A stretch of 64,000 bases of DNA from Rhodocyclaceae bacterium UBA2271 (GCA_002347405.1 DDXB01000047.1:26690-90689); one strand, 5' to 3'; shown: positions 27,081-63,492, counted from the first letter of the stretch. Numbers and translations: made by a program. Notes: generated from the letters alone by a model not told the origin.

Positions 27081-27155
27081 TATGGCCCCCACGCTCACTT
27101 CGTTCGCTACCCCCACGGGGGGCGCTGCCTCCTTCGGGGCGGCCCATCAGGAGGC
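27081..27155 (-). repeat. family-B multi-hairpin element (intergenic copy, right after the fadB-type stop codon)
   Basis: The stem GCCTCCT/AGGAGGC (27127-27155) encloses the loop TCGGGGCGGCCCATC. Upstream is a CCCCC-AC-GGGGGG hairpin, and the terminal ATGGCCCCC abuts TAA. Confidence 0.8.
27127..27155 (+). promoter_or_regulatory. hairpin whose 3' arm is the Shine-Dalgarno (AGGAGG) of the thiolase gene
   Basis: GCCTCCT-15 nt-AGGAGGC. AGGAGG at 27149-27154 lies 4 nt before the ATG at 27159 (10 nt before the ATG at 27165). Confidence 0.5.
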
Positions 27156-27158
27156 ATC

Positions 27159-28361
27159 ATGACAATGAGACAAATTCAGGAAGCCTACATTGTTGCCGCC
27201 ACGCGTCTGCCGGTGGCCAAGAAGAACGGCATGTTCAAAAACGTGCGGCCGGACGACATGCTGGCCCACGCCATCAAGTCCGTGCTGGCCCAGGTGCCGG
27301 GGATCGATCCGGCGCGGATCGGCGACGTGATTGTCGGCTGCGCCATGCCGGAAGCCGAACAGGGCATGAACGTTGCCCGCATCGGCCTGTTGCTGGCCGG
27401 CCTGCCGAACACGGTGCCGGGTATGACCATCAACCGTTTCTGCTCGTCGGGCGTGCAGGCGGTGGCCGATGCCGCCAACCAGATTCGCCTCGGCCTGGCC
27501 GACGTGATGATCGCCGCCGGCACCGAGTCGATGAGCGTGATGCCGCAGATGATGGGCAACAAGATGGCGATGAATCCGGCCTTCTTCGCCAAGGAGGAGA
27601 ACATCGCAATTGCCTACGGCATGGGGCTGACGGCAGAGAAGGTGGCCAACCAGTGGCAGATCAGCCGTGAGGCGCAGGACGCCTTTGCCGTCGAGTCGCA
27701 CCGTCGGGCCTGCGCGGCCATCGCCGCCGGCCACTTCAAGGCCGAAACGACCCCCTATCCGATCCATGAAAGCCTGCCGGATTTGCTGACCGGCGAAATC
27801 CGGGTCAATAGCCGCACGGCCGAGAACGACGAAGGCCCGCGCCCGGATTCCAGCCTGGAAAAACTCGCCAAGCTGCGGCCGGTGTTCCATGCCCGCGGCT
27901 CGGTGACGGCCGGCAATTCTTCGCAGATGTCCGACGGGGCCGGTGCGGTCATGCTGGTTTCGGAAAAGGTGTTGAAGGAACACAATCTGACACCGCTTGC
28001 GCGTTTTGCCGGTTATGCCGTTGGCGGCGTGGCGCCAGAGATCATGGGCATCGGCCCGGTGGCGGCGATTCCCCGCGTGCTGGAACAGGTCGGCATCAAG
28101 CAGGACGATCTCGACTGGATCGAACTCAATGAAGCCTTTGCCGCGCAGTCGCTTGCGGTCATCAAGGAGCTGGGCCTGAATCCGGACAAGGTCAATCCGC
28201 TCGGCGGCGCGATTGCGCTGGGCCATCCGCTCGGCGCTACCGGCACCATCCGCACGGCAACGGTTGTGCATGGCCTGAGGCGCACTGGGGGAAAATATGG
28301 CATGGTGACGATGTGCATCGGCACCGGCATGGGGGCCGCCGGCATTTTCGAGCGGCTCTGA
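27159..28361 (+). CDS. fadA: acetyl-CoA C-acyltransferase (3-ketoacyl-CoA thiolase)
   Basis: 400 aa with NRFCSSGVQAV (active Cys), GNSSQMSDGA, GHPLGATG and CIGTGMG. Confidence 0.9.
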   Translation: MTMRQIQEAYIVAATRLPVAKKNGMFKNVRPDDMLAHAIKSVLAQVPGIDPARIGDVIVGCAMPEAEQGMNVARIGLLLAGLPNTVPGMTINRFCSSGVQAVADAANQIRLGLADVMIAAGTESMSVMPQMMGNKMAMNPAFFAKEENIAIAYGMGLTAEKVANQWQISREAQDAFAVESHRRACAAIAAGHFKAETTPYPIHESLPDLLTGEIRVNSRTAENDEGPRPDSSLEKLAKLRPVFHARGSVTAGNSSQMSDGAGAVMLVSEKVLKEHNLTPLARFAGYAVGGVAPEIMGIGPVAAIPRVLEQVGIKQDDLDWIELNEAFAAQSLAVIKELGLNPDKVNPLGGAIALGHPLGATGTIRTATVVHGLRRTGGKYGMVTMCIGTGMGAAGIFERL

Positions 28362-28488
28362 AATAAACCGGGATTGTCCAATAGCCCAAAATATCCGACA
28401 CGCCCGTACAGGCGGTAATGACGGATATTTAACGGATAATCGCGGATAAACGCTGTGCGCCGGGCAATAAAACCAAGGAGGAGACGGC

Positions 28489-30165
28489 ATGGAAAAGTTC
28501 TGGCTGCAGAGTTATCCAAAAGGCATACCGGCGGAAATTAGTATCGACCAGGTTCCTTCGCTGGTTGCGATGTTCGAGAAGGCCTGCACAACGTATGCAG
28601 ACCAGGTGGCCTACATCAGCATGGGGCGCGAGATGACCTACCGCCAGCTTGACGAGGAAAGCCGGGCCTTTGCCGGCTGGCTGCAATCGAGGGGGATGGC
28701 GAAGGGCGATCGTGTCGCACTGATGATGCCCAACCTGCTGCAGTATCCGGTGGCACTGTTCGGTGCGCTGCGGGCGGGCTGTGTCGTGGTCAATTGCAAC
28801 CCGCTTTACACGCCGCGCGAACTGGAACAGCAGCTGAAGGATTCCGGCGCGACCGCCATCGTCATCGTCGAGAACTTTGCGCATGTGCTGGAGAAGGTGA
28901 TCGCGCATACCGCCATCAAGCATGTGGTGGTGACGCCGATGGGCGAAATGCTCGGCATGCTGAAGGGCGTGCTGGTCAATTTCGTCGTGCGCTACATCAA
29001 GAAGCTGGTGCCGGCGTGGCACATTGCCGGTGCAATTGGCTTCAACCGGACTTTGTCCGCTGGCCGACAGCATGGTTTTCAGCCGGTACAACTCGGCCAT
29101 GATGATCTGGCTTTCCTGCAATACACCGGCGGCACGACAGGCATTTCCAAGGGCGCCATGCTGACGCACGGCAATATCTGCGCCAATGTGGCGCAGGCGC
29201 TGGCCTGGATCGGCCCGGTGGTCAAGGAAGGCAAAGAGTTCATCATTACCGCGCTGCCGCTTTACCATATCTTTGCGCTGACCGCGAACTGCCTGACTTT
29301 CATGTCAGTCGGTGCGCGTAACCTGCTGATTGCCAATCCGCGCGATATTCCGAACTTCATCAAGGAGTGGGGCAAGTATCCGGTCAGCATCATGACGGGG
29401 GTCAACACCCTGTTCAATGCGTTGCTGAACAATCCCGAATTCGCCAAGCTCGATTTTTCCAGTTTTCGCGTCACGCTCGGCGGTGGCATGGCGGTGCAGG
29501 CGCCGGTTGCCGAGCGCTGGCTGAAGACCACCGGTGTGCCTTTGCACCAGGCCTATGGCCTGACGGAAACCTCGCCCGCCGCGACCATCAATCCGCTCGA
29601 TGTACGTGAATTCAACGGATCGATCGGTCTGCCGATCTCGTCGACCGAGGTGGTCATCCGTGACGATAACAGTCAGGAAGTGCAGATCAACCAGGTCGGC
29701 GAAATCTGCATTCGCGGCCCGCAGGTCATGAAAGGTTACTGGGAGCGGCAGGAGGAAACGGACGGGGTATTTGGTCCGGGTCGTTTCCTGCGCACCGGCG
29801 ACATGGGTTACATGGATAAAAACGGCTTCGTTTTTCTGGTCGATCGGAAGAAGGACATGATTCTCGTATCGGGTTTCAACGTCTATCCGAACGAGGTCGA
29901 GGAAGCGATCGCGATGCATCCCGGCGTGATCGAGGTTGCGGCGATTGGCGTGCCGGACGAACGTTGCGGGGAGGTGGTGAAGATTTTCGTCGTGCGCAAG
30001 GATCCGGCACTTACCGAAGCGGCACTGATCCAGCATTGCCGCGGCGTGTTGACCGGCTACAAGATTCCGAAACATGTCGAGTTCCGCGATGACTTGCCGA
30101 AAACCAACGTCGGCAAGGTGTTGCGGCGTGCGCTCAAGGATGACAGCCCGCCAACGACGCCCTGA
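28489..30165 (+). CDS. fadD: long-chain-fatty-acid--CoA ligase
   Basis: 558 aa with the AMP-binding motif [19 protein letters not shown], and TGD...D.KKD motifs. Confidence 0.9.
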
Positions 30166-30269
30166 TGCCCGTTTCCGCGCTCTTGCAAAAAAACCTGGCG
30201 CTGCCGGTCATCGGCGTGCCGGCTGAAATGATGCTGCTACTGAATAATCTCGGATAAAAGGAACATGAA

Positions 30270-32063
30270 ATGAGTGACTACCGCGCACCCCTCAAGGAAA
30301 TGCGTTTCGTCATGGACGAACTGGCCGGCTTGCCGGAAATCAGCCAACTGCCCGGTTTCGAGGATGCGACACCCGACATGGCCGATGCGATTCTTGAAGA
30401 AGCGGCGAAATTCGCCAGTGAGGTGCTGGCGCCGCTGAATCAGGTCGGCGACAAGGCAGGTTGCACGCTGACGCCGCAGGGCGTCACCACGCCTCCTGGC
30501 TGGAAAGAGGCTTACCAGGCCTTTTGCGCGGCGGGCTGGAACGGCATTGTCCTGCCGCCCGCATTCGGCGGCCAGGGCCTGCCGGATGTGTTGGGCGTCG
30601 CCGTCAAGGAAATGGTCTGCTCGGCCAACCTGTCGTTCTCGCTGGGGCCGCTGCTGACGACTGGCGCTGTCGAGGCGCTGCTCACCTGCGCCAGCGACGA
30701 ACTGAAAGCCATCTATCTGGAAAAAATGGTGACCGGCGAGTGGACCGGCACGATGAATCTCACCGAGCCGCAGGCCGGTTCCGACCTGGCGCAGATCCGT
30801 TCCCGCGCCGAACCGCAGGCCGACGGCAGCTATCGTATCTTCGGCCAGAAAATATTCATCACCTATGGCGACCACGACATGACCGACAACATCGTGCATC
30901 TCGTGCTGGCCCGTCTGCCGGACGCGCCGCCCGGCGTCAAGGGCATCTCGATGTTCCTGGTGCCGAAATTTCTGGTGAATGCGGATGGCTCGCCGGGCGC
31001 GCGCAACGACGCGCTGTGCGTTTCCCTCGAACACAAGCTCGGCATCCACGCCAGCCCGACCTGCGTGATGGCCTATGGTGACCAGGGTGGCGCGGTCGGC
31101 TATCTGCTCGGTGAGCCGAACCTCGGCCTCGAATACATGTTCATCATGATGAACGAGGCGCGGCTGGGGGTCGGTTTGCAGGGCGTCGCGCTCGGCGAAC
31201 GCGCCTACCAGCAGGCGCTCGCTTTCGCCCGCGAGCGCAAGCAGGGACGCGACGCGCTGACCGGCGAGAAACTGGTCACCCTCGACCGGCATCCCGACAT
31301 CCGCCGCATGCTGATGACGATCAAATCACGTGTCGAGGCATGCCGCGCCCTGGCTTACCTGGCGTCCGGCCTGCTCGACCGCGTCCATGCCAGCACCGAT
31401 CCGGAAGAGAAAAAGCGCAACCTGTATCTTGCCGAATTCATGATCCCCATCGTCAAGGGCGGCAGCACCGAAATGAGCATCGACGTCACCTCGCTCGGCA
31501 TCCAGATTCACGGCGGCATGGGTTACATCGAGGAAACCGGTGCCGCCCAGCACTGGCGCGACGCGCGCATCACCACCATCTACGAAGGCACGACAGGGAT
31601 ACAGGCGAATGACCTGCTGTTCCGCAAGCTGATGCGCGACCAAGGCGCTACAGCAAAGGTGGTGTTCGGCGAAGTGCATGCGACGGTCAAGGCTCTGGCG
31701 GCCTCCAGTCGGCCGGAACTGCAAGCCATCGCCAAGCGCCTGGGGGTCGCCCTGCAGGCCTGGACCGGCGCGACCGAGTGGCTGGCCGCCAATGTCAAAA
31801 CCGGCCTGTCCGGCGTGCTGGCGGCGGCGGTGCCTTATCTGCATCTGGCCGTCACCGTTTGCGGCGGCTGGCAGATGGGCCGCGCGGCACTGGCGGCCGC
31901 TGGCCATCTGGACAAGGAAGATGGTGATCTCGCCTTCTTCCGCGCCAAGATCGCCACCGCGCATTTCTATGCCGATCACCTGTTGCCGCAAGCGGCAGCG
32001 TATGCCGAGAGTGTCAAGGCGGGCGACGCGGCGCTGGCCGGGGTGGGTGACGAGGTTTTTTAA
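30270..32063 (+). CDS. acyl-CoA dehydrogenase, ~600-aa type with C-terminal extension
   Basis: 597 aa with an ACAD core (TEPQAGSDL, IFITYGDHD, IHGGMGYIEE). It follows fadD. Confidence 0.85.
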   Translation: MSDYRAPLKEMRFVMDELAGLPEISQLPGFEDATPDMADAILEEAAKFASEVLAPLNQVGDKAGCTLTPQGVTTPPGWKEAYQAFCAAGWNGIVLPPAFGGQGLPDVLGVAVKEMVCSANLSFSLGPLLTTGAVEALLTCASDELKAIYLEKMVTGEWTGTMNLTEPQAGSDLAQIRSRAEPQADGSYRIFGQKIFITYGDHDMTDNIVHLVLARLPDAPPGVKGISMFLVPKFLVNADGSPGARNDALCVSLEHKLGIHASPTCVMAYGDQGGAVGYLLGEPNLGLEYMFIMMNEARLGVGLQGVALGERAYQQALAFARERKQGRDALTGEKLVTLDRHPDIRRMLMTIKSRVEACRALAYLASGLLDRVHASTDPEEKKRNLYLAEFMIPIVKGGSTEMSIDVTSLGIQIHGGMGYIEETGAAQHWRDARITTIYEGTTGIQANDLLFRKLMRDQGATAKVVFGEVHATVKALAASSRPELQAIAKRLGVALQAWTGATEWLAANVKTGLSGVLAAAVPYLHLAVTVCGGWQMGRAALAAAGHLDKEDGDLAFFRAKIATAHFYADHLLPQAAAYAESVKAGDAALAGVGDEVF

Positions 32064-32071
32064 TTCGCTGG

Positions 32072-32095
32072 CGCCGTCCCGCCAGCGCCGACTTT
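32072..32095 (-). repeat. family-A 24-nt unit, exact
   Basis: It is the reverse complement of the consensus and lies between the convergent acyl-CoA dehydrogenase and azlD genes, touching the azlD stop. Confidence 0.95.
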
Positions 32096-32418
32096 CAGGC
32101 CAGTTGTTGCAGCAGCCAGAATGCCACGAAGCCGCTGGCAATCGTCAGCAGCGTGTTCTTCCAGCGGGCGGCGACGGCGATGGCAAGCAGTCCGGCCCAG
32201 AAGCGCGGGTTGCCCGTGCCGATGTCGACCTGTCCGGCGACCAGCAACAGTTCGGGAGTGACCAGCGCGGTGAGGGCGGCGATCGGCACGAAGGGCAGCC
32301 AGCGGATGAACCAGCTCGGCGGCTGGTAATGGCCTTCCAGCGCGATGAATGAGTAGCGGATGGCGAAGGTGAGCGCTCCGCAGGCAATCCACAGCAGTAT
32401 CAGCGCGGTCTGGCTCAT
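32095..32418 (-). CDS. azlD: branched-chain amino acid exporter small subunit (AzlD family)
   Basis: 107-aa hydrophobic protein with a 4-nt overlap with an upstream AzlC-like gene. Confidence 0.7.
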   Translation of the reverse strand: MSQTALILLWIACGALTFAIRYSFIALEGHYQPPSWFIRWLPFVPIAALTALVTPELLLVAGQVDIGTGNPRFWAGLLAIAVAARWKNTLLTIASGFVAFWLLQQLA

Positions 32419-33101
32419 CGGTTGCCCCGCCTTTGCATGAATGCGCCGGCGGCGAGGCCCGCCAGCGCGGCGACGAACAGGCCGGTCTTGTAGGGCAGGG
32501 CGACCAGCAGCACAGCGACAATTCCGGAAAAAAGCGCGGCAACCAGTCGGGCGCGGCTGTCAATCAGCGGCACGACGATGGCGATGAAGGTGAGCGGCAG
32601 GGCGAAATCGAGGCCGAGGTCGGCGGGCAGTTGCGCGCCGATTAGCACGCCGGCCAGCGTCGCAAGTTGCCAGCCGAACCAGAGCGCGAAGCCGGAGCCG
32701 AAGAGGATCCAGTGCGCCTGCGGCGAGCGCGGCTCGGCAAGCAGGTGGGGGATGGCGGCGGCGTAGGCTTCGTCGGTCAGCAGGTAGGCCAGGAGCAGCT
32801 TCCAGCGGCGTGGCAGGGCATGGAGGACGGGCGCGACCGAGGCGCTGTAGAGCGCATGGCGCAGGTTGATCAGCCCGACGGCGCCGACCATCAGCAGGGC
32901 CGGTGCGCCGACGCCAATCAGTTGCGCGAGCAGGAATTGCGCCGATCCGGCAAAGACCAGCGAGGACATCAAAAACGCCGCCAGCGGCGGAATGCCGCTT
33001 TGCAGCGCGACCACGCCGTAAATCACCCCGAACGGCGCCACGCCCAGCAACATGGGCAACAGGGCGCGGACGCCAAGCAGGAAGGCGGAAGAGGGTGTCA
33101 T
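32415..33101 (-). CDS. azlC: branched-chain amino acid exporter (AzlC family)
   Basis: 228-aa polytopic membrane protein paired with AzlD. It has an AzlC-like pattern (FAGSAQF). Confidence 0.75.
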   Translation of the reverse strand: MTPSSAFLLGVRALLPMLLGVAPFGVIYGVVALQSGIPPLAAFLMSSLVFAGSAQFLLAQLIGVGAPALLMVGAVGLINLRHALYSASVAPVLHALPRRWKLLLAYLLTDEAYAAAIPHLLAEPRSPQAHWILFGSGFALWFGWQLATLAGVLIGAQLPADLGLDFALPLTFIAIVVPLIDSRARLVAALFSGIVAVLLVALPYKTGLFVAALAGLAAGAFMQRRGNR

Positions 33102-33183
33102 TGGATTTCAGGAAGCGGCCAGCCGGGATTCTACGTGGCAGCGCCGTTATAATCGTGCATTCATCATTCATGTCCCCCCTCCT

Positions 33184-36100
33184 GTGCGCCTGATCAAGCT
33201 CAAAGTCGCCGGCTTCAAGTCATTTGTCGAGCCGACCGTCGTATTGTTTCCCGACCAACTCGCGGGCGTGGTCGGACCCAACGGTTGCGGCAAGTCGAAC
33301 ATCATCGACGCCGTGCGCTGGGTGCTGGGCGAATCAAAGGCTTCCGAACTGCGCGGCGAGTCGATCCAGGACGTGATCTTCAAGGGCTCGGGTGGTCGCA
33401 AGGAAGTGGGGCGCGCCAGCGTCGAGCTGCATTTCGACAACGCCCAGGGACGCGCCGCGGGCCAGTGGAGCCAGTACGCCGAGATCGTCGTCAAGCGCAT
33501 CCTCGACCGCGAGGGCAATTCCAGCTACTACATCAACAACCTGCACGTGCGCCGGCGCGACGTGATCGACCTGTTTCTGGGTACCGGACTGGGGCCGCGC
33601 GCCTACGCGATCATCGGCCAGGGCATGATTTCGCGCATTGTCGAGGCCAAGCCGGACGAACTGCGTTTCTTCCTCGAAGAGGCGGCCGGCGTCACCAAAT
33701 ACAAGGAACGGCGCAAGGAAACCGAGGGGCGCCTCGAAGATGCCGGCGAAAATCTGGCGCGTGTCGATGACATTCGCGGCGAACTAGGCAATCAGGTTAC
33801 CCGGCTGGAAAGCCAGGCCGCGGTGGCGCAGCAATACCGCGACCTGCAATTGCAACTGAACCGCCGCCAGAGCCTGCTCTGGTTCAAGAAACGCAAGGAT
33901 GCGCAGGCTGAAACCGTCAAGCTGGAACGCCTGGTCGACGAAGCGATCAACCGCGTCGAGGCCGAAACTGCTGCCTTGCGCGCCACCGAGGCGCGCGTCG
34001 AGCAGGCGCGCGAGGCGCACTTCACCACCTCCGATGCCCTGCACGCCGCCCAGGCCGAGATGTATGCGGCGAACGCCGAGGTCAAGCGGCTGGAAGCCGA
34101 AATTGCGCATCTGCGTGATTCCCGCTTGCGGCTGGAAACCCGCCTGGCACAACTGGATGCGCAGGAGCAGCACTGGTCGGGCGAGATGCGGCGTGTCGAG
34201 GAGGAAGACTTCCGCTGGCGCTCCCTGCTCGAAAATTCCCGCGAACGCGCCGCCACGGCCGCTGCCCGCCATGAAGAAGCTGCCCTGCGCCTGCCCGAGG
34301 CTGAAGATGCCGTCAAGGCGGCTGAAGCGCAGGCTGCCGAAAGCCGCAAGGCGCTGAATGCCGCTGAACAGGGTCTGCGCCTGGCGGAGGCCGATCGTGG
34401 CCATGCCGTGCGGGCGCTCGACAATCTTGCCCAGCGCCGACAACGCATGGATGCCGAGAGTGCCGGTCTGGCTGCGCCCGACCCCGTGCTGCTGGCGACC
34501 GCGCAGGAGGGGGCAGCACAGGCCGAAATTGCGCTCGACATGGCGCAGGAAGGCCTTGCCGCCCTGCAGGTGAAGCAACCGACGCTGGAAGCGGCATTGC
34601 GCAGCGCCCGCGAGGCGATGCAGGCCGCGCACCGCGATGTCACGACGGCGCGCGCACGTCACGATGCCCTGGCCCAGTTGCAGCAGAGCGTGGGGCAGGG
34701 CGGTGATCTGTCCGGCTGGCTGAAAGACATGGGACTGGCCGATGCCCAGCCGCTCTGGCGCGCGATCCAGGTCGATCCGGGTTGGGAAACCGCCGTTGAA
34801 GCCGTGCTGCGCGAGCGGTTGATGGCCGTGCCGGGTGATGCCGAGACTCTGCAACGGGCGCTGGCCGCCCCGCCCCCCGCCACCATGGCACTGGCCCTGT
34901 GCCGCGCGGACGCTGCCGCCGTCATTCCGGCCGATAGCCTGCGTGCCCATGTGCGCTGCCTCAATTCGCAGTGGGTGGTGGTGCTTGACGAATGGCTGGG
35001 CGATGTGCGGGTGGTTGATGGCGATGCGGCGCTGACGGCGGGAATGTTGGCCAATGAGGGCTGGCGCGTGAGTCGTGCCGGCCATCTGGCAACACCCTGC
35101 GGTTTGACCCTGTATTCACCCGATGTGCGCACCCATGGGGTGATTGAACGGCAGCGTGAGATCGATGAGCTGGCCGGGCAGATCGCCGCGCTGGAAGAGT
35201 CGGAGATGTTGGCGCGCGAGACGCAGACGGAGGCCGAGCGGGCGGTTGCCACCGGTCAACAAAACCTGTCCGAGACGCGGCGGGTGTTGCAGGAAACGCA
35301 ACAGCGCCTGCATGCGGCACAGGTCGAGGCGCTCAAGCTCACGCAGGCACAGGCCCGCCACGACGAGCGTGCCGGCCAGATCGCGCGCGACCTGGCCGAG
35401 ATCGTGCGGGTCGAAGCAGAGGAAAAGGCGGCGCTCGCTGGTGCCGAGGACGAGGCGGTCAAGTGCCGTGAAGCGCTGGCTGCGGCCCGTGCGCGCATGG
35501 AAGAAGCGCTGGAACTGCAGCGCCAGCGTGACACGGCAATGCGCGAAGCGCGCGCGCTCGAACATCAGCTGGCCCGCGAAGCGCAGGATGCCGGATTCTC
35601 CGAGAAGGAATGCCATTCGAAGCTGGCCGACAATGCGCGCGCTGCCGAAACGGCGAAGAAGCAGCTGGAACAGGCGGCCACCGATCGTGCCGTGACCAGA
35701 CAGGATCTGGCGGCAATCAGCGATGCGGTGATCCAGGAGCAGTTGCAAGCAGCGCTGGGACAGCGCGGCGTGCAAGAGTCGGCGCTGGCGGAACGGCGCA
35801 TTGCGCTGGAAGGTGCTGCCAGCCAGTTGCGCGCGGTGGATGAGGAGCGTCTCAAACTCGAACAGGGTTTGCAGCCGGCGCGCGACAGGATCAACGACCT
35901 GAAACTCAAGCAGCAGGCCGCGCAGTTGAACGTCGAGCAATACCAGGAACGTCTTGTCGAGGCGCACGTCAGGAAACACGCCGGGCCGCCCCAAGTGTTT
36001 CCTGACCCCCTGGGGGGAGAAAGCCGCGCAGCGGCTTTTTCGGGGGGGGCACACCTTAGTCCGGAGGACGAGGCCGCGCTGGCTGCCGAACTGACGCCGG

Positions 36101-36813
36101 GCCTGCGGGACAGCGTCCTGCAGGGCGATATCGCGCGGATCGCCGCCGAGATCGAAGCGCTGGGGCCGGTGAATCTGGCCGCGCTCGAAGAACTGGCGAC
36201 GGCCAGCGAACGCAAGGGCTACCTCGACGAGCAGTCGGCGGACCTCGCTACCGCGATCGGTACGCTGGAAGATGCCATCCGCCGCATCGACCGGGAAACC
36301 CGCGAGCAGTTGCAGGAGACCTACGAAACGGTCAATCGCCATTTCGGCACCTTGTTCCCGGAACTGTTCGGCGGCGGCGAAGCCAGGCTGATACTCACCG
36401 GCGAGGAAATCCTCGATGCCGGCATCCAGATCATGGCGCAGCCGCCGGGCAAGCGCAATTCGACCATCCACCTGCTGTCGGGCGGCGAGAAGGCGCTGAC
36501 CGCCATCGCGCTGGTATTTGCATTGTTCCAATTGAATCCGGCGCCGTTCTGCATGCTTGATGAGGTGGATGCGCCCCTCGACGATTCGAACACCGTGCGT
36601 TTCTGCGAGATGGTCAAGCGCATGTCGCGCCATACCCAGTTCGTCTTTATCACGCACAACAAGATCACCATGGAAATGGCGCAACAGTTGATTGGTGTCA
36701 CCATGCAGGAACAAGGCGTGTCGCGTGTGGTGGCAGTCGATATCGAAGAGGCATTGCGCATGACTGACGAAACGCTTCCTGTCCAACAGGCACCTGCCTG
36801 GGGCAGGGGATGA
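33184..36813 (+). CDS. smc: chromosome segregation protein SMC
   Basis: A GTG start gives (M)RLIKLKVAGFKSF. It has Walker A GPNGCGKSNIIDA, long coiled coils, the signature LSGGEKALTAIAL and Walker B CMLDEVDAPLD. It contains a family-B element (35971-36058) and a family-A-like unit (35775-35798) in frame. Confidence 0.9.
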   Translation: MRLIKLKVAGFKSFVEPTVVLFPDQLAGVVGPNGCGKSNIIDAVRWVLGESKASELRGESIQDVIFKGSGGRKEVGRASVELHFDNAQGRAAGQWSQYAEIVVKRILDREGNSSYYINNLHVRRRDVIDLFLGTGLGPRAYAIIGQGMISRIVEAKPDELRFFLEEAAGVTKYKERRKETEGRLEDAGENLARVDDIRGELGNQVTRLESQAAVAQQYRDLQLQLNRRQSLLWFKKRKDAQAETVKLERLVDEAINRVEAETAALRATEARVEQAREAHFTTSDALHAAQAEMYAANAEVKRLEAEIAHLRDSRLRLETRLAQLDAQEQHWSGEMRRVEEEDFRWRSLLENSRERAATAAARHEEAALRLPEAEDAVKAAEAQAAESRKALNAAEQGLRLAEADRGHAVRALDNLAQRRQRMDAESAGLAAPDPVLLATAQEGAAQAEIALDMAQEGLAALQVKQPTLEAALRSAREAMQAAHRDVTTARARHDALAQLQQSVGQGGDLSGWLKDMGLADAQPLWRAIQVDPGWETAVEAVLRERLMAVPGDAETLQRALAAPPPATMALALCRADAAAVIPADSLRAHVRCLNSQWVVVLDEWLGDVRVVDGDAALTAGMLANEGWRVSRAGHLATPCGLTLYSPDVRTHGVIERQREIDELAGQIAALEESEMLARETQTEAERAVATGQQNLSETRRVLQETQQRLHAAQVEALKLTQAQARHDERAGQIARDLAEIVRVEAEEKAALAGAEDEAVKCREALAAARARMEEALELQRQRDTAMREARALEHQLAREAQDAGFSEKECHSKLADNARAAETAKKQLEQAATDRAVTRQDLAAISDAVIQEQLQAALGQRGVQESALAERRIALEGAASQLRAVDEERLKLEQGLQPARDRINDLKLKQQAAQLNVEQYQERLVEAHVRKHAGPPQVFPDPLGGESRAAAFSGGAHLSPEDEAALAAELTPGLRDSVLQGDIARIAAEIEALGPVNLAALEELATASERKGYLDEQSADLATAIGTLEDAIRRIDRETREQLQETYETVNRHFGTLFPELFGGGEARLILTGEEILDAGIQIMAQPPGKRNSTIHLLSGGEKALTAIALVFALFQLNPAPFCMLDEVDAPLDDSNTVRFCEMVKRMSRHTQFVFITHNKITMEMAQQLIGVTMQEQGVSRVVAVDIEEALRMTDETLPVQQAPAWGRG
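35775..35798 (+). repeat. family-A-like 24-nt unit (2 mismatches) inside smc, different frame
   Basis: AGAGTCGGCGCTGGCGGAACGGCG is translated ESALAERR. Confidence 0.7.
35971..36058 (+). repeat. family-B multi-hairpin element, in frame inside smc
   Basis: AGGAAACAC-GCCGGGCCGCCCCAA-GTGTTTCCT is followed by CCCCC-TG-GGGGG, then AAGCCGC-GCA-GCGGCTT, then a G8 run. It is translated RKHAGPPQVFPDPLGGESRAAAFSGGAHL. Confidence 0.85.
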
Positions 36814-36868
36814 CCCCGAGGCGCGCCGCGTTACGGCGCCGGGACTGCTTAGGCTTGACGGAGGCGAA

Positions 36869-40636
<3,768 letters not shown>

Positions 40637-40640
<4 letters not shown>

Positions 40641-41512: not shown

Positions 41513-41531
41513 CCATTGGCTGGAATAAAAC

Positions 41532-43006: not shown

Positions 43007-43107
43007 TGGCCCCCCACGCTTGCAACATCGGCTCGCTGCCCCCCATGAAATCACCCGAAGCGGTGACGGGGGGGCGGCGCCTCTCTTGGGGCGGCCCGGC
43101 GAGAGGC
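43007..43107 (-). repeat. family-B multi-hairpin element (intergenic copy, right after the yciO stop codon)
   Basis: TGGCCCCCC abuts TAA. A CCCCCC...GGGGGGG hairpin is followed by the stem GCCTCTC/GAGAGGC (43079-43107) around the loop TTGGGGCGGCCCGGC. Confidence 0.8.
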
Positions 43108-43122
43108 TAAAATCCAGGTCTT

Positions 43123-47833: not shown

Positions 47834-47911
47834 GTTCAGGCCATGCTGTACCACCTAACCGGCTTGTTCCGGTTAGCCTCCACCGAATGCCGGTTTTACC
47901 CGTACCGGACT

Positions 47912-47935
47912 CGCCGTCCCGCCAGCGCCGACTTT
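47912..47935 (-). repeat. family-A 24-nt unit, exact
   Basis: It is the reverse complement of the consensus and lies in the rluB-rimP spacer. Confidence 0.95.
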
Positions 47936-47941
47936 TGGCCT

Positions 47942-48031: not shown

Positions 48032-48057
48032 AAATGGGCAGTTGCCCATTTTTTTTT
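48032..48057 (+). terminator. intrinsic terminator in the rimP-nusA leader (candidate attenuator)
   Basis: AAATGGGCA-GT-TGCCCATTT is followed by a T run (9 T in total). It lies ~60 nt downstream of the predicted -10 and 18 nt upstream of the rimP ATG. Confidence 0.6.
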
Positions 48058-48074
48058 GGGGCGGCGGGAAGTGT

Positions 48075-48575: not shown

Positions 48576-48616
48576 CCAGGCTTTAACTGAATTCGGAATT
48601 TGAACGGGAGATTGAA

Positions 48617-50101: not shown

Positions 50102-50110
50102 GGAGGCGAT

Positions 50111-52720
<2,610 letters not shown>

Positions 52721-52729
52721 TAATCGGCG

Positions 52730-54048: not shown

Positions 54049-54064
54049 AAACTTGGGCAACTGT

Positions 54065-54094
54065 TTGAATAATCGGGTTAACGGCGGGTATAAT
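54065..54094 (+). promoter_or_regulatory. sigma70-like promoter of rpsO
   Basis: TTGAAT-N18-TATAAT leaves a ~150-nt leader containing the stem GCCCAAG (54142-54148)/CTTGGGC (54177-54183). Confidence 0.4.
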
Positions 54095-54244
54095 CGCCGG
54101 CCTTGCCAATAGCAATGACGGCGAGATTCAGTGACGGCTTTGCCCAAGGGTAATGCCAATGCTGGAATGTCACTTTCTTGGGCGCAGTGCTCTATCAAAC
54201 CGGGGCGGTGCCTGTTTCCAATTCAGCGTTTGAGAGAAAATCAT

Positions 54245-54514
54245 ATGGCCATTAATACCGCCGCCAAGGCGAAAATTGTTACCGATTTCCAGCGCACCCA
54301 AGGCGACACGGGTTCCCCCGAAGTGCAAGTTGCCTTGCTGACTGCGCGCATCAACGACCTGACCGGTCACTTCAAGGCCCACGTCAAGGATCACCATTCC
54401 CGTCGCGGTCTGCTCAAAATGGTGAGCCAACGCCGCAAGATGCTGGACTACCTCAAGGGAAAAAATGCCGACAGCTATCGTGAGCTGATTGCGCGTCTAG
54501 GTCTCCGCAAGTAA
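54245..54514 (+). CDS. rpsO: 30S ribosomal protein S15
   Basis: 89 aa with [31 protein letters not shown]. The ATG at 54245 is preceded by GAGAGAAAA. Confidence 0.95.
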
Positions 54515-54592
54515 CGCTGCTGTGCACGTTATCCGATTGCTGTGCCGGTGCGGCCGCAGGCTGTGCCGGCTTCCTTATTGAAAGGAATTGTT

Positions 54593-56704
54593 GTGCTGAC
54601 ACCCATCAAGAAAAGCTTTGTCTACGGTGCTCATACCGTGACGCTGGAAACTGCCGAGATCGCGCGCCAATCAACCGGCGCCGTTCTGGTGAACGTCGAT
54701 GACACTGTCGTGCTCGCCACTGTCGTCGCCAAAGATGTCGCCAAGACCGGTCAGGACTTCTTCCCGCTGACGGTCGACTATGTTGAAAAAGTCTATGCTG
54801 CCGGTCGCATCCCGGGCGGTTTCTTCAAGCGCGAGGGCCGCCCCTCCGAGAAGGAGGTCCTGACTTCGCGGCTGATCGATCGGCCGATCCGTCCGCTGTT
54901 CCCCGACGGCTTTTACAACGAAGTACAAGTCATCATTCACGTGCTGTCGAGCAATCCCGAAGTCGATCCGGACATTCCGGCGATGATCGGCGCTTCGGCG
55001 GCGCTGGCGATTTCCGGCATTCCCTTCAGCGGCCCGATCGGTGCCGCGCGGGTTGGCTACATCGCTGGCCAGTATGTGCTGAACCCGACGTTCAGCCAGT
55101 TGATCGAGAGCAAGCTTAATCTCGTCGTCGCCGGTACTCAGGCAGCCGTGCTGATGGTTGAGTCTGAAGCCCAGGAACTGTCCGAGGAAGTCATGCTGGG
55201 TGCCGTCGTCTTTGGACACGATCAGTTGCAGGCAGCCATCAAGGCCATCAATGAACTGGTTGAAGAGGCTGGCAAGCCCGAGTGGGACTGGCAGCCGCCG
55301 GCCAAGGACGACGCCCTGATTGCCAGGGTCGCGGCATTGGCCGAAGCCGATCTGCGCGAAGCCTATCGCATCACCAGCAAGCAAGCGCGCACCCAAAAGT
55401 GCCGCGAGATCTCGAACAAGGTTATCGAGGCGGTGTGCACCGGTGACGGCGCCCCTGATACAACCTCTGTCGGCAACCTGATTTTTGATATTGAAGCCAA
55501 GATCGTGCGCAGCCAGATTCTTAATGGCGAACCGCGCATCGACGGTCGCGATACGCGCACCGTGCGTCCGATCGCCATCCGCCACGGCGTGCTGGCACGC
55601 ACCCACGGTTCGGCGTTGTTTACCCGCGGTGAAACCCAGGCACTGGTCATCGCCACGCTGGGTACCGGCCGCGATGAGCAGATCATCGATGCCCTGCAAG
55701 GCGAGCATCGTGATCGCTTCATGCTCCACTACAACATGCCGCCCTTCGCTACCGGTGAAACCGGCCGTGTCGGCAGCCCGAAGCGACGCGAAATCGGCCA
55801 CGGTCGCCTTGCCAAGCGCGCCCTGCTGGCCGTGCTGCCGTCTCCGGAAGATTTCAGCTATTCGATGCGCGTCGTGTCGGAAATTACCGAATCGAACGGT
55901 TCCTCTTCGATGGCTTCGGTGTGCGGCGGTTCGCTCGCCCTGATGGATGCCGGTGTGCCGCTGAAGGCCCATGTAGCGGGCATCGCCATGGGCCTGATCA
56001 AGGAAGGCAACCGTTTTGCCGTGCTGACCGATATCCTCGGTGACGAGGATCACCTGGGTGACATGGACTTCAAGGTGGCGGGTACCGAAGCTGGCATCAC
56101 CGCGCTGCAGATGGACATCAAGATTCAGGGCATCACCAAGGAGATCATGCAGGTGGCACTGGCGCAGGCCAATGAAGCACGTCTGCACATCCTCGGCATC
56201 ATGAATGCCTCGATGGGCGGACACCGTCAGGATGTGTCCGATTATGCTCCACGCATGATCACGATCAAGATCAATCCGGAAAAAATTCGCGATGTCATCG
56301 GCAAGGGTGGTGCCGTCATCCGTGCCCTGACGGAAGAAACCGGCTGCGTCATCGACATTGGGGATGAAGGTACCGTGACCATCTCGTCCGTCAATTCCGA
56401 TGCTGCGCAAGTCGCCAGGAAGCGTATTGAGGACATCACCGCAGAAGTCGAGGTTGGCAAGATTTACGAAGGCACGGTGCTGCGTCTGCTGGACTTTGGC
56501 GCCATCGTCCAGATCATGCCGGGCAAGGATGGCCTGTTGCATATTTCCCAGATCGCCAACGAGCGCGTGAATGCCGTTGCCGATCACCTGAAGGAAGGCC
56601 AGCTGGTGCGCGTCAAGGTCATCGAGACGGATGACAAGGGGCGTGTGCGTCTGTCCATGAAGGCTTTGCTGACCGAGCCTGCTGGCGAGGCCGCCGCGCA
56701 GTAA
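54593..56704 (+). CDS. pnp: polyribonucleotide nucleotidyltransferase (PNPase)
   Basis: It has two RNase PH domains, a KH domain and an S1 domain. GTG at 54593 lies 6 nt after AAAGGAA, giving (M)[25 protein letters not shown]. Confidence 0.95.
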
Positions 56705-56723
56705 TCATCCGCGGCGGCGGTGC

Positions 56724-56756
56724 AACAAAAAAGGACGCCTGGCGTCCTTTTTTGTT
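56724..56756. terminator. bidirectional intrinsic terminator between convergent pnp and dksA
   Basis: The sequence is an A run, AAGGACGC-CTG-GCGTCCTT, then a T run. Confidence 0.8.
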
Positions 56757-56873
56757 TGAAGTTAGCAAGTTGCTGGCTCAGGACGAGGGGGTTGAAAGTT
56801 GATTTTCCTCGATGCCGGCTTGCGTCGAAATGGCCTAATCGGGGCTGATCCGCGATTCCTCAGCCGAGAAAAC

Positions 56874-57299
56874 TTACTTGGCTATTTGTTTCTCTCTGCG
56901 CTCTTCGAGTTCCTTGCAGTCAATGCACATGGTTGCAGTCGGGCGTGCTTCCAAGCGTTTCAGGCCGATTTCAACGCCGCAGCTTTCACAATAACCATAT
57001 TCACCCTCTTCGATTAGATTGATCGACTCGTCGATCTTCTTGATCAGTCTGCGCTCGCGGTCGCGATTGCGCAATTCGAGGGCGATGTCGGATTCCTGGC
57101 TGGCCCGATCATTCGGATCGGCAAATACCGTTGCCTCATCCTGCATGGTATGAACCGTACGCTCGATGTCGCCTGCCAACTCGAGTTTGAGCGCATCGAG
57201 AATTTTCCGGAAGTGCGCGAGTTGCTTCGCGCTCATGTACTCCTCGTTCTTCTTGGGAACGTAAGGGGCAATCTGTTTTTGCTGAAACTCTTCGGCCAT
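56874..57299 (-). CDS. dksA: RNA polymerase-binding transcription factor DksA
   Basis: 141 aa with a coiled-coil carrying a DxxDxA tip (DPNDRASQESD) and a C4 zinc finger CESCG...CIDCK. Confidence 0.9.
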   Translation of the reverse strand: MAEEFQQKQIAPYVPKKNEEYMSAKQLAHFRKILDALKLELAGDIERTVHTMQDEATVFADPNDRASQESDIALELRNRDRERRLIKKIDESINLIEEGEYGYCESCGVEIGLKRLEARPTATMCIDCKELEERREKQIAK

Positions 57300-57377
57300 C
57301 GTTGCTCCGCCAGAAAAAATACGACGTTATAAACGAAACATACTTATGCTGCAAGTCCTTACTTCGGGGCGAAAACC

Positions 57378-58007
57378 CTAGTCCGCCAGATTGGGTTCAT
57401 CAAGCACAAGTTTTACACCAAAACCGATCAATGCCATACCAGCCATGCGTCGGGCAAGATTCCGCATCCAGTCCATGCGTGCCAGCCGTCGAGCAGTCCA
57501 ATGGCCGGCAAAAACCAGAATTGTCTGGTAAATCAGGCTGATCAGGCTGACATGCAGGAGCAGCGCCGTTAGCGTGATTGCTGAAGCGTCGGCGTTGATG
57601 AATAGAGGGAAAAAGGCGACAAAGAACAGCATTGCCTTGGGGTTGGTCAGACAAATCGCCAGCGCCCGGTGGAAATTGTTCCAGACCTGCCGGGCGGGAG
57701 GCTGAAGTGCGACGGTATGGGGCGGCTTACGCAGCAACTGCATGCCGATCCAGCACAGATAGACGGCACCAAATGTCTGCAGCGCGCCAAATATTTCCGG
57801 ATGGAGTTGCAACAGCGCAGCCAGGCCCAGTACGGCCCCCAGCATCCACACTGCATCGCCAGCCAAAGTGCCGGCAACAGCAGCCATGCCTGCGGAAACG
57901 CCATGTCTGCCGGTCGCGGCAAGAATCGCAAACGTTCCCGGTCCTGGAATCAACTGGAAGATCAGGACGGCGGCGATGAAACTGGCGTAGTGCTGGATGT
58001 CGAGCAC
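57378..58007 (-). CDS. LysE/RhtB-family amino acid exporter
   Basis: 209 aa with 6 TM segments and the N-terminal LIPGPGTFAILA motif of the LysE family. Confidence 0.8.
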   Translation of the reverse strand: MLDIQHYASFIAAVLIFQLIPGPGTFAILAATGRHGVSAGMAAVAGTLAGDAVWMLGAVLGLAALLQLHPEIFGALQTFGAVYLCWIGMQLLRKPPHTVALQPPARQVWNNFHRALAICLTNPKAMLFFVAFFPLFINADASAITLTALLLHVSLISLIYQTILVFAGHWTARRLARMDWMRNLARRMAGMALIGFGVKLVLDEPNLAD

Positions 58008-58022
58008 GGGGCAATCCCTTTC

Positions 58023-60644
<2,622 letters not shown>

Positions 60645-60848
60645 GGCATGGCATGGAATGAGAAACAAAGATGCGATTTTACGCGAAGCCGACAGCAAAA
60701 ACCTTGCTGTAAAGCCGCGGAGGATGTGTACTCGTGTCAATCAATGTACTATCGCCGGCAGTAATACCAAGCGTGCTTTGACCCGGATCGGCGCTACGAC
60801 AAAGACTGAGAGCCTGAAATTGAGTGATATGAATCTGGCCAGATAACC

Positions 60849-63254
60849 ATGGAAAAGAACATTGGCCGCTTTGAAATTCGCGGCGAACTGGGGCGTGGCG
60901 CGCAGAGCGTGGTCTATCTCGCCTGGGATCCGCAGTTGCAGCGCGAGGTGGCGATCAAGACGCTGCATTTTTCAAGCGCCGATGCAGCGCGAAATGCGCT
61001 GTTGCTTGACGAGGCGCGCATGGTCGGAAAATTCCGTCATCCGCATGTGGTGCCGATCTACGATGTCGGCGAGCAGGATGGCGAGCCCTATCTGGTCTTC
61101 GAGCGGGTCTTGGGCAGAAGCCTCGCCGTTGCACTGAAGAACGATGGCCCCTTGCCGGCGATCCGGGCGGCCACGCTGATGCTGCAGATTGCCGACGTGC
61201 TGGCCGAGGCGCACTCGCTGGGCATCATCCACCGCGACTTGAAACCGTCCAACATCCTGCTCGACGCCCGCGACGGCGCGCCGCGCGTGATGGATTTCGG
61301 TATTGCATCGGAAGTGTCGGCACAGGGCAAGACGGCAGGCGAAGCATTGAAAGGGACTCCGCAATATCTGGCGCCGGAATACATCACCCAGCAGCGGACC
61401 ACCCCGCAGGTCGATGTCTTCGCGGCCGGTCTGATCCTGCTGGAAATGCTCACCGGGAAACGCGTTTTCGATGGCGGATCAATCGAAGCGATTCTCTATC
61501 GCATTGCCTGCGAGCCGGTGAGCTTGCCGAGGGAACCTGCCATCGACCCACGGCTCGGTGGCATCATCCTGCGTGCCTGCGCGCTCGATCCATCCCAACG
61601 CTATGCCAGCGCCGACGAATTGCGTGACGCGCTGAATGATTTTCTGGGCGATGGTTCGCTCGATCGGACTACCGGACCGACGGCAATTGCGCAGCGCGAT
61701 ACGCTTGAGTTCTTGTTGCGCCGCATGCGCCACAAATCCGATTTCCCGGCGCTGTCCGAGTCGGTGTCGGCCATCAACAAGCTGACCGCTGCCGAGGGTG
61801 AGAGCGTCTCTGCCTTGTCGAACGCCATCCTCAAGGACTATGCACTGACCAACAAGATATTGCGGCTGGTGAATTCCGCATACTATCGCCAGGCCGGTGG
61901 CGGCAACATCAGCACCGTGTCGCGCGCCGTGATCGTGCTGGGTTTCGACACCATCCGCAACATTACCCTGACGGTGTTGCTGTTCGAACACCTGCAGGAC
62001 AAGGCCAATGTACGCGAACTGAAGGATGCCTTTTTGCGCGCCAACCTGGCCGGCCTGGTGGCGAAGGACATCTGTAAAAGCCCCATGTTGGGACGCCAGG
62101 GCGAAGAAGCGTATATCTGCGCAATGTTTCATGGTCTCGGCCAGCTGCTGGCGCAATACTATTTCCCCGAAGAGGTCGAGGAAGTCAACAAACTGGTGCA
62201 ATTCAGGAAGCGCTCCGTGCGCACCGCGGCAACCGAGATACTGGGCATCACTTTTGAAGACCTGGGGATTGGCATTGCCGGTAACTGGGGGTTTCCGCCG
62301 ACCATCATAGACAGCATGCGACCGCTGTCGGCCGATGAACCGCGCAAGCCAAATACGATTAGGGAGGCACTCCATGTCGCAGCCGTGTTCGGCAATGAAC
62401 TGTGCGCTCTGGTGGGTGTCACGCCGCCCGAACAGCGCGACATGGCGCTGCGCAAGATCAGCCAGCGCTTCGGTACGAGCCTTCAGATCAGCGACCGGCA
62501 GGTTCAGGAGACCGTTGAAAAGTCGGTCGTGGAGTTGGCGCAACTGGCCGCGGTCCTGCGGGTGAATGTCAGGCAAAGTTCGTTTGCCCGCCAGGTGGCC
62601 GCCTTCGCCAGTGGGGCTGCGGGTGCAGATGAATGCCTGTCGCCCGCAACCGTACCCGATCACCTGGCCGACACCCTGCTGGGCGACTCGGCGTTGCTCG
62701 ACGGACTGGAGGACACTGCAACTGCAGGAATGCCTGATGACGCTCAGGCGGTGCTGACCGCCGGCATCCAGGACATCAGCAACTCACTGGTGGATGATTT
62801 TCCCCTCAACGACATCCTGCGCATCATTCTCGAAACCATCTACCGGGCGATGGGCTTCAAGCGGGTGCTGCTTGCCCTGCGCGACGCCAAGACCGGGCGC
62901 ATGGCGGGGCGCTTCGGCCTGGGCCCGGACGTCAATGATCTGGTGCGGCAATTCCGCTTTCCGCTCGGCAGCCAGCTCAATGATGTTTTTCTGCTGGCCA
63001 CGGGGCGTGGTGTCGACATCATCATCAAGGACATCGACGACCCGAAAATTGCTGACAAGGTGCCGCAATGGTTTCGCGAGCGAGTGCCGGCCAAAACTTT
63101 CGTGCTGTTCCCGCTCAACATCAAAGGCAAGTCGGTGGCGTTGATCTACTGCGACAAGGACAAAGCCGGCTCGATCAACATTCCGGAAAAGGAGCTGGCG
63201 CTCCTGAAGACCCTGCGCAACCAGGCCCTGCTGGCGATCAAGCAGGCGGCGTGA
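60849..63254 (+). CDS. Ser/Thr protein kinase fused to HDOD and GAF-like domains
   Basis: The N-terminal Hanks kinase has GRGAQSVVY, AIK, HRDLKPSNIL, DFG and APE motifs. The central HDOD-like block is ILKDYALTNKILRLVNSAYY...LGFDTIRN. The C-terminal region is GAF-like. Confidence 0.8.
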   Translation: MEKNIGRFEIRGELGRGAQSVVYLAWDPQLQREVAIKTLHFSSADAARNALLLDEARMVGKFRHPHVVPIYDVGEQDGEPYLVFERVLGRSLAVALKNDGPLPAIRAATLMLQIADVLAEAHSLGIIHRDLKPSNILLDARDGAPRVMDFGIASEVSAQGKTAGEALKGTPQYLAPEYITQQRTTPQVDVFAAGLILLEMLTGKRVFDGGSIEAILYRIACEPVSLPREPAIDPRLGGIILRACALDPSQRYASADELRDALNDFLGDGSLDRTTGPTAIAQRDTLEFLLRRMRHKSDFPALSESVSAINKLTAAEGESVSALSNAILKDYALTNKILRLVNSAYYRQAGGGNISTVSRAVIVLGFDTIRNITLTVLLFEHLQDKANVRELKDAFLRANLAGLVAKDICKSPMLGRQGEEAYICAMFHGLGQLLAQYYFPEEVEEVNKLVQFRKRSVRTAATEILGITFEDLGIGIAGNWGFPPTIIDSMRPLSADEPRKPNTIREALHVAAVFGNELCALVGVTPPEQRDMALRKISQRFGTSLQISDRQVQETVEKSVVELAQLAAVLRVNVRQSSFARQVAAFASGAAGADECLSPATVPDHLADTLLGDSALLDGLEDTATAGMPDDAQAVLTAGIQDISNSLVDDFPLNDILRIILETIYRAMGFKRVLLALRDAKTGRMAGRFGLGPDVNDLVRQFRFPLGSQLNDVFLLATGRGVDIIIKDIDDPKIADKVPQWFRERVPAKTFVLFPLNIKGKSVALIYCDKDKAGSINIPEKELALLKTLRNQALLAIKQAA

Positions 63255-63492
63255 TCAAAAAACGCCCGCCCCTCCCGACCTCCCCTCGCGGGAAGGTGAC
63301 TGTAGCTCGCTACGCTCGACTATTACTGGGCGCTCTGTTTTGGGTACTGCACGGTTTGCGCCTGGCAGCGCGTGGCGCATTGTGTGCGACAAAGTCGCAT
63401 TCCGCTGCGCGGAACCAGCCTTCGGCTGTCCTGCGGCCTACGGCCTTGTCTTGGGGCGGCCCGGCGGCAATGCTACTGAGGGATAGTCGGCA
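63255..63492 (+). repeat. composite 3'-flank element (family G) filling the kinase-MFS spacer
   Basis: It starts right after the TGA. It contains the head GCCCGCCCC...CCCGACCTCCCC, the blocks GCTCGCTACGCTCGACTATTACTGGG and GGTTTGCGCCTGGCAGCGCGTGGCGC, and ends in a family-B loop module. Confidence 0.7.
63441..63475 (-). repeat. family-B loop module inside composite element G
   Basis: CCTTGTC-TTGGGGCGGCCCGGC-GGCAATG carries the exact 15-nt loop with an imperfect stem. Confidence 0.65.

Follow-up and report, generated by a model that had tools for sequence, protein, structure and literature searches.

Family-B, a probably mobile three-hairpin repeat with a conserved apex and covarying stems in Betaproteobacteria

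Small structured repeats and the place of family-B

Small, structured, non-autonomous repeats of several kinds have been described in bacteria, and here we set beside them family-B, a GC-rich element of three hairpins (P1, P2 and P3) present in four full copies in a 64,000-nt stretch of Rhodocyclaceae bacterium UBA2271 (GCA_002347405.1, DDXB01000047.1:26690-90689), the whole of which we call the window. As judged from stem covariation, family-B is a genuine family selected for a fold, and comparison of filled with empty sites points to a probable selfish DNA element, mobile but non-autonomous; its conserved fold would serve as the handle for an enzyme.

The REP, BIME and REPIN repeats, which RAYT (Y1 HUH) transposases move, are likewise small GC-rich hairpins interspersed in genomes, often just 3′ of stop codons, sometimes clustered and occasionally intragenic. 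REP sub-families differ by complementary stem changes and also lie within genes, including in the Rhodocyclales genus Thauera (PMC3733652), so covarying stems alone are not new. A REP is, however, one palindrome of 20-40 nt, often in inverted pairs, whereas family-B has three hairpins over 75-90 nt and forms head-to-tail arrays; its conserved apex on a free stem may be a further difference, many of its copies are intragenic, and no GTAG/CGTC REP tag adjoins P1, P2 or P3 in the consensus of 227 copies or the flank profiles. Rickettsia palindromic elements (RPEs) resemble family-B as short structured repeats lying in frame in unrelated housekeeping genes, and their in-frame insertion adds a peptide segment to the protein (PMC10969869). 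RPEs measure ~100-150 bp and belong to an alphaproteobacterial genus, whereas family-B is betaproteobacterial, is abundant also between genes and in prophages, and forms tandem arrays; the RPE-like insertion is a likeness of behaviour, not shared ancestry.

[quoted passage not shown] The palindrome-associated PATEs, derived from IS200/IS605, are characterized by subterminal hairpins, insertion 3′ of a particular tetra- or pentanucleotide, a cognate Y1 TnpA and a replication-linked strand bias. They are alike in the absence of terminal inverted repeats, in hairpins that are likely recognized, in apparent insertion by a short motif without clean duplication and in loops that fit single-stranded DNA, but no TnpA was found in the fetched family-B loci and the window copies are not strand-biased. 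Pneumococcal BOX elements and the mosaic repeats of Neisseria and E. coli (NIME, BIME), compared here by description, also consist of separable hairpin modules (in family-B, P1 stands alone at times, P3 is optional or variable, and hairpins can be nested); they belong to other taxa, and family-B has a fixed module order with single units the rule. The Bor repeats are REP-like stem-loops of 26-30 bp reported as over-represented in Bordetella (Petrillo et al. 2006, PMC1590033), a genus that is among the hosts of family-B. Bor was described there as a single short stem-loop, whereas family-B is a three-hairpin unit; Bor stem-loops could overlap with P1.

Family-B behaves like REP, MITE and RPE repeats and appears to stand outside any named family, the kind itself (small structured non-autonomous repeats) being known. 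Our literature search returned no paper with the sequence or a named element, only general REP/MITE papers and the Bor repeats. Of the original prediction, an undescribed REP-like or structured-RNA family proposed from the window alone, the first half survives in part: no description was found and the likeness to REP is loose, while the REP tag and the inverted pairs of single palindromes are absent.

A fold with a conserved apex

The anatomy comes from an alignment of 227 unique copies taken from other sequences. The unit is about 75-90 nt long (~100 nt with nested inserts), GC-rich, and ordered P1, short linker, P2, P3, terminal G-run. P1 has a stem of ~8 bp, free to vary in sequence, below a nearly invariant apex, GCC-GGG-CCG(C/T)-CCC-AA, composed of an internal loop (GCC/AA), a GGG:CCC helix and a tetraloop, CCGY. 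This apex had been predicted to be an invariant 15-nt loop; it is instead structured, GCC + GGG + CCGY + CCC + AA, with a 3-bp GGG:CCC helix inside it. P2 has the form CCCC(C)-YY-GGGG(GG). P3 varies in length and sequence, with loops GAA, GCA or GTA closed by C:G in 62 of ~126 distinct segments, and with GNNA loops besides. Two types can be told apart. In type I, P3 is closed by GCGA...GAGC with tandem G.A pairs, and the 3′ end is GCGTGGGGGC, often followed by ..CAT; in type II, the P1 stem is (CTC)AAGAAACAC/GTGTTTCTTG and the 3′ end GGGGG(CG)CTCA. In neither is the 5′ end (a variable stem; CTCAAGAAACAC in type II) an inverted copy of the 3′ end (GCGTGGGGGC or GGGGGCGCTCA).

Selection on a fold, claimed by the original prediction from five loci, is borne out by the wider set. 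In a gap-free alignment of 150 distinct sequences, controlled by column shuffles and slid partners, P1 positions pair in 90.9% of cases, a level attained by none of 500 column shuffles, whose value is 65.4%. The covariation score is 0.604 against 0.144 when shuffled, and it never exceeds 0.126 once the 3′ partners are shifted by 1-3 columns, the control that addresses kinship among copies that share descent. Two-sided changes are found in 8 of 8 outer pairs, all four Watson-Crick pairs occur at positions 4-8, and pairing is at background level past 8 bp. The apex helix has compensatory variants of its own: GAG/CTC (four times), AGG/CCT and CGG/CCG. Apex conservation is overestimated, since the retrieval pattern behind most copies held the apex fixed; it left the stems unconstrained. 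RNAalifold, run on an independent full-length alignment, returns P1, the apical helix and P2, with a C:G to U:A exchange in P2. The compensation noticed between the smc and ligA copies (G>A matched by C>T) is real and represents one event in a copy lineage, as both belong to one stem subfamily (at least 120 loci).

For the window we used nhmmer and a covariance model trained on 98 family members, copy C being left out of the training alignment. Both methods find the same four full copies, A and B of type II and C and D of type I; the covariance model also matches a fragment, E.

35971-36054, + strand: copy A (type II), 84-nt, 28-codon in-frame insertion in smc, translation RKHAGPPQVFPDPLGGESRAAAFSGGAH
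35968-36006, + strand: P1 of copy A, 12-bp stem GTCAGGAAACAC/GTGTTTCCTGAC, apex at 35980-35994, GCC-GGG-CCGC-CCC-AA
36006-36049, + strand: 3′ domain of copy A, holding P2, P3 and the terminal G8 run
36006-36017, + strand: P2 of copy A, CCCCC-T-GGGGGG
36018-36041, + strand: P3 of copy A, hairpin with a C-GCA-G triloop
36042-36049, + strand: terminal G8 run of copy A
38013-38093, + strand: copy B (type II), in frame in the ligA N-terminal region (ORF 37999-40104), codons 6-32
38023-38037, + strand: apex of copy B, on stem CAAGAAACAC/GTGTTTCTTG
43008-43107, - strand: copy C (type I), intergenic, stem GCCTCTC/GAGAGGC, apex at 43086-43100
27085-27156, - strand: copy D (type I), intergenic, stem TGCCTCCT/AGGAGGCA, variant apex at 27134-27148
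63446-63470, - strand: fragment E, P1-like module only, with exact apex and imperfect stem, inside a different mosaic repeat

Covariance-model scores are 71.7 bits for copy A (35971-36047, E 1e-14), 68 bits for copy B (E 7e-14), 63.9 bits for copy D (27085-27157, - strand, E 6e-13) and 56.4 bits for copy C (43013-43109, - strand, E 3.5e-11). Fragment E matches model positions 5-29 only (22.8 bits, E 0.0018; nhmmer E 0.45). Over 81 nt, copy A (35970-36050) shares 79% identity with copy B (38013-38093). Copy A can also be parsed as 35972-36058 (87 nt), with a flank that differs by 3 nt; its P1 region folds at -50 kcal/mol (z -3.45), and folding is good on both strands of the element. Within P2 of copy C, at 43044-43068, sits a nested hairpin (GTCACCGCTTCGGGTGAT), and several type II copies elsewhere (loci L204, L219, L238 and L240) have the same ~70-nt insert (AGTTCCGGCCGGCCCTTCGGGCC...GAAACTTCGTTTT) between P1 and P2.

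The 15-mer GCCGGGCCGCCCCAA, on which the original prediction was built, is exact at 35980-35994 (+), 43086-43100 (-) and 63451-63465 (-), with one change at 38023-38037 and three at 27134-27148, all as predicted; since only ~0.001 exact matches are expected in the window (an estimate from base composition), these are not chance. All the quoted closing stems are present and complementary, that at 63444-63472 poorly so. The common module order ascribed to five loci is found at four (A, B, C and D), the 63.4-kb locus having the first hairpin only and no downstream modules. Another detail is reversed: the two intergenic copies do not begin at TAA codons, for both lie on the minus strand, and the stop codons (27078-80 and 43004-06) adjoin the element's 3′ end.

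Units also occur head to tail, with array junctions in which ...CTCA is followed directly by AG...; 5′-truncated copies are found mostly at array heads, and downstream members have degenerate 5′ arms. Arrays of three to four units are seen at L164:2628-2865 (in an AcrB-family gene), at L086:5016-5177 and in L091 (the whole 375-nt contig). Some array units are translated in frame, giving repeated peptides of ~27 residues within a transporter gene. One Achromobacter contig is made solely of the repeat and is probably the collapsed assembly of a high-copy array.

Insertion sites, gene context and distribution

Filled and empty versions of the same site were sought as loci in which a copy's two flanks are contiguous. 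At smc, 11 of 11 aligned homologues are without exactly the 28 residues contributed by copy A, and the DNA site is uninterrupted in loci L190, L191 and L250. The last of these aligns in synteny with window 35374-38765 (85-90% identical); it has no smc copy and carries the ligA copy at the same position, in frame. Because L250 has only the ligA copy, the ligA insertion is older than the lineage split and the smc insertion younger. On this comparison of orthologous sites, the smc copy marks a recent move of the element. Further filled/empty pairs lie in prophage genes (L009 against L038, L052 against L043, L027 against L007/L034, and L053 against L028/L032). In the three clean pairs (smc, L009/L038 and L052/L043), both P1 arms lie within the inserted segment and the right end of the insertion imperfectly repeats 5-9 nt of the left flank; filled/empty pairs show microhomology of the left flank with the 3′ end of the element. 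Type II copies with CTCA both directly 5′ of the element and at its 3′ end number more than 100, and a true target-site duplication and element-carried sequence look the same; the CTCA/NNCA found 5′ of 47 or more of 99 type II copies is likewise inseparable from element-carried sequence.

Gene calls around the copies are crude, with eight deep intragenic cases backed by Pfam domains on both sides of the insert: ValRS, GlmS, RadA, a biotin-dependent carboxylase, HrpA, an AcrB-family pump (three to four tandem copies), a molybdopterin oxidoreductase and a phage terminase. Intragenic copies sit in frame, in either orientation, in unrelated housekeeping genes, and no common function was found among the genes neighbouring copies. 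Type I copies are about evenly oriented with respect to genes (47 sense-like, 52 antisense-like): intragenic copies are sense in 30 cases and antisense in 18, and intergenic copies are antisense between co-directional genes in 34, sense in 17, convergent in 7 and divergent in 4. Solo type II copies often abut a stop codon of the opposite strand, within 36 nt of the G-run in 30 of 76 and within 7 nt in 25; in 22 of the 76, the terminal TCA is itself the TGA stop of the opposite-strand gene. Copies C and D follow the same rule with TAA, the 3′ end of copy C being 1 nt from the stop (43004-06) of the upstream plus-strand gene.

Copy D lies between the stop (TAA 27078-80) of a 3-hydroxyacyl-CoA dehydrogenase/enoyl-CoA hydratase gene and the ATG (27159) of a thiolase gene whose Shine-Dalgarno sequence, AGGAGG, is one arm of its P1. 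It is read through by a short frame.

27082-27162, + strand: mini-ORF through copy D, 26 codons, ATG at 27082, TGA at 27160-62 overlapping the thiolase ATG (ATGA)

Similar mini-ORFs of up to 60 codons, ending near the neighbouring stop or start codons, span 19 of 34 antisense intergenic type I copies. Near copy B, the stop of zipA overlaps the start of ligA (TGATG, 37997-38001), and gene calls on matching metagenome contigs also start ligA at this overlap (701 aa). On those calls, translation runs through copy B and the ligase gains ~27 residues close to its N-terminus; no alternative in-frame start was found between copy B and the conserved ligA N-terminus.

The proposal of a family extends well beyond the window. 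A scan pattern, GCCGGGCCGNCCCAA-N9-14-CCCCC-N1-30-GGGGG, was run against viral contigs and against one genome per species. The former gave 74 copies at 64 loci, mostly Mu-like and other prophage regions; the latter gave at least 120 loci and, among the matches listed, every named organism is betaproteobacterial. Hosts among these listed matches include Roseateles, Burkholderia, Xenophilus, Polaromonas, Hydrogenophaga, Acidovorax, Variovorax, Rhodoferax, Ramlibacter, Achromobacter, Bordetella (L084), Castellaniella, Pigmentiphaga, Zoogloea, Thiobacillus and Casimicrobiaceae. Family-B is also present in eight plasmid or chromid records, mostly without an annotated feature there. In metagenomes, the AAACAC...GTGTTT stem subtype, that of the window, is present at at least 120 loci, 13 of them, among the matches listed, on long contigs of one assembly (Ga0180732). 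The window itself matches contigs from wastewater-type metagenome assemblies, and its closest smc homologue is labelled Rhodocyclaceae. Across 1.49 Mb of fetched loci, nhmmer gives 246 matches. BLAST of canonical copies against GenBank phages returned no match, and because cultured phage records are without one, the 'viral' matches are mostly bacterial prophage regions.

Rfam gives no match over the window at gathering thresholds, and permissive searches (copy A at E up to 10; four canonical-copy loci at E up to 1) give nothing credible. Pfam gives no match to element-encoded peptides. A search of 5.8 billion proteins with the in-frame peptide (KHAGPPQVF...) scored nothing and is uninformative, given a word index and a short query.

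Mobile element, structured RNA or retroposon

We consider family-B to be probably a mobile DNA element, a reading that draws on new copies at unrelated sites in many betaproteobacterial lineages, among them prophages, plasmids and the interiors of essential genes. The conserved fold would be recognized by an enzyme supplied in trans and acting on the folded single strand. The apex, named as recognition determinant by the original prediction, is a plausible candidate from its conservation. Three features are in keeping with an HUH-type enzyme that would recognize the folded single-stranded DNA: GNA triloops with C:G closure, G.A pairs in tandem and the balance of mismatches in P1; hairpins of the d(GCGNAGC) type are unusually stable in DNA. 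Insertion would favour short motifs containing TCA/CAT, often stop or start codons on the other strand, and the element's 3′ end would remake a motif of this type on insertion, which would explain both the head-to-tail arrays and the stop and start codons kept by neighbouring genes. Of the intragenic insertions, only frame-preserving ones would be retained, and it is probably the lack of stop codons in most frames of the element that lets copies persist within genes.

Several results weigh against this reading. Around the copies, ~2.2 Mb of fetched loci yielded no recurrent gene for a transposase, RAYT or reverse transcriptase: the clusters formed from 1244 ORFs were generic families only (ABC transporters, KdpD, aldehyde dehydrogenases and TctC) together with phage structural proteins, and tblastn over the same 2.2 Mb with an IS200 TnpA query, a weak test, gave nothing below E 1.8. 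No terminal inverted repeats were seen in the element. In the window the full copies divide 2:2 between strands within a uniform GC skew, a split at odds with strict targeting of the lagging strand as in IS200/IS605. Target-site duplication is ambiguous, the direct repeats of 5-9 nt in four filled/empty pairs being imperfect, and among type II copies with an atypical left flank, matching right flanks number 5 against 2.2 expected (~p 0.06), which is not significant. Of intergenic type II copies, 39 of 41 have their 3′ end facing the 3′ end of an opposite-strand gene, a bias that a function in the transcript could also produce. Lastly, the simple model does not account for L027:3765-3844, where the 5′ P1 arm (CAGCACGCC) pre-exists in the empty sites L007, L034, L012 and L064 and yet pairs perfectly with the inserted 3′ arm.

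We considered whether the outer P1 arm is copied from the target as a general rule and rejected this, since the smc, L009 and L052 insertions carry both arms, and since more than 100 type II copies at different sites have the same arms; L027 is the exception.

The mobile-element reading has to be weighed first against one in which family-B is mainly a functional structured RNA, stabilizing or terminating mRNA 3′ ends or coupling translation, with its spread secondary. In the coupling version, P1 would hide the ribosome-binding site of the next gene until the mini-ORF is read through, as the Shine-Dalgarno arm and bridging frame of copy D and the 19 of 34 similar frames would allow. The covariation of P1, the C:G to U:A exchange in P2, the tandem G.A closure of type I P3 and the single orientation of intergenic type II copies relative to the adjacent gene's 3′ end all suit such an RNA, and both strands fold well. 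However, a transcript function sits poorly with the even split of type I copies between sense and antisense, and with the many copies in unrelated coding sequences, in both orientations and in tandem arrays. Neither strand is favoured, because G.U/G.T-type mismatches in P1 are about as frequent as A.C-type ones; P3 has GNA triloops, not the GNRA or UNCG tetraloops typical of RNA; no Rfam family corresponds; and the neighbouring genes share no function. We regard this alternative as unlikely, and of the structured-RNA half of the original prediction the covarying fold stands, while the 47 sense against 52 antisense type I copies weaken the rest.

Still less probable is a SINE-like retroposon, whose structured transcript a reverse transcriptase acting in trans would copy into DNA at a nick, by target-primed reverse transcription. 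The imperfect flanking repeats of variable length, the microhomology between left flank and 3′ end, the 5′-truncated copies and degenerate 5′ arms downstream in arrays, the insertion in both orientations and a conserved 3′ domain that could act as a recognition or priming structure would all suit such a route. Yet no reverse transcriptase gene was seen in the fetched loci, the 5′-truncated copies are mostly array heads that slippage or deletion could explain, and GNA triloops suit DNA better. No SINE-like retroposon system is known in bacteria. That there is no element at all, only chance GC-rich similarity or slippage duplications, has next to no probability: 15-mers with up to three mismatches do number only 11 in the window against 8.4 in shuffled sequence, but the exact and one-mismatch 15-mers lie in alignable units of 75-100 nt (E 1e-11 to 1e-14), hundreds of copies occupy unrelated loci in many genera, and orthologous empty sites were found.

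Two further candidates were discarded. A ribozyme or riboswitch (twister, pistol and HDV-like among other classes), prompted by pseudoknot-like C and G runs, is not matched in Rfam, and the GAG/CTC apex variants covary together and not with the 3′ G-run. An integron attC site was set aside because neither its conserved end motifs nor a cassette-array context was seen.

The mobile-element reading, if right, has a wider bearing. The invariant apex on a free stem, the GNA triloops, the direct arrays and the absence of inverted repeats misfit both REP/RAYT and MITE systems, so the enzyme that moves family-B could reveal a new mobilization route. In its strongest form this would be a new betaproteobacterial mobilization system, a three-hairpin element of single-stranded DNA or RNA whose apex is read by a trans-acting enzyme, inserting exactly at stop or start codons, regenerating the codon and, as a by-product, repeatedly adding segments of 25-30 residues to essential proteins such as SMC, DNA ligase, ValRS, GlmS and RadA; we hold this fuller picture to be doubtful, though conceivable. 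If no description exists, family-B is among the larger unannotated repeat families of Betaproteobacteria, including wastewater Rhodocyclaceae. Its copies bear on genome annotation, giving rise to spurious mini-ORFs, to extended N-termini and to assembly contigs that collapse; their presence or absence offers markers between close strains; and essential proteins that carry such natural in-frame insertions, 25-30 residues long, could serve studies of insertion tolerance.

Other repeats of the window touch family-B at two points. The mosaic repeat that encloses fragment E is 118 nt long and 72% identical between 2632-2747 and 63264-63381 (inverted), and one of its modules (GGCCGCAGGACAGCCGAAGGCTGG...) sits inserted where P3 would be in a family-B copy of another genome (L176, ~5000-5100), which suggests exchange or nesting of small hairpin modules between elements. 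A 26-mer, CAAAAGTCGGCGCTGGCGGGACGGCG, presumably 'family A', recurs in perfect or near-perfect form at six sites on both strands, 6-10 kb apart, and at locus L197 directly adjoins a family-B copy.

5361-5388, - strand: 26-mer site
10798-10825, + strand: 26-mer site
17221-17249, + strand: 26-mer site
32072-32095, - strand: 26-mer site
38783-38807, - strand: 26-mer site
47911-47939, - strand: 26-mer site
35773-35798, + strand: 24/26 match to the 26-mer inside smc, encoding the conserved ESALAERR

Two more repeats, unrelated to family-B, lie in two intergenic regions: a 172-nt direct repeat (10848-11017 and 17487-17653, 77% identical) and a 33-nt inverted pair (10754-10786 and 17444-17476, 94% complementary).

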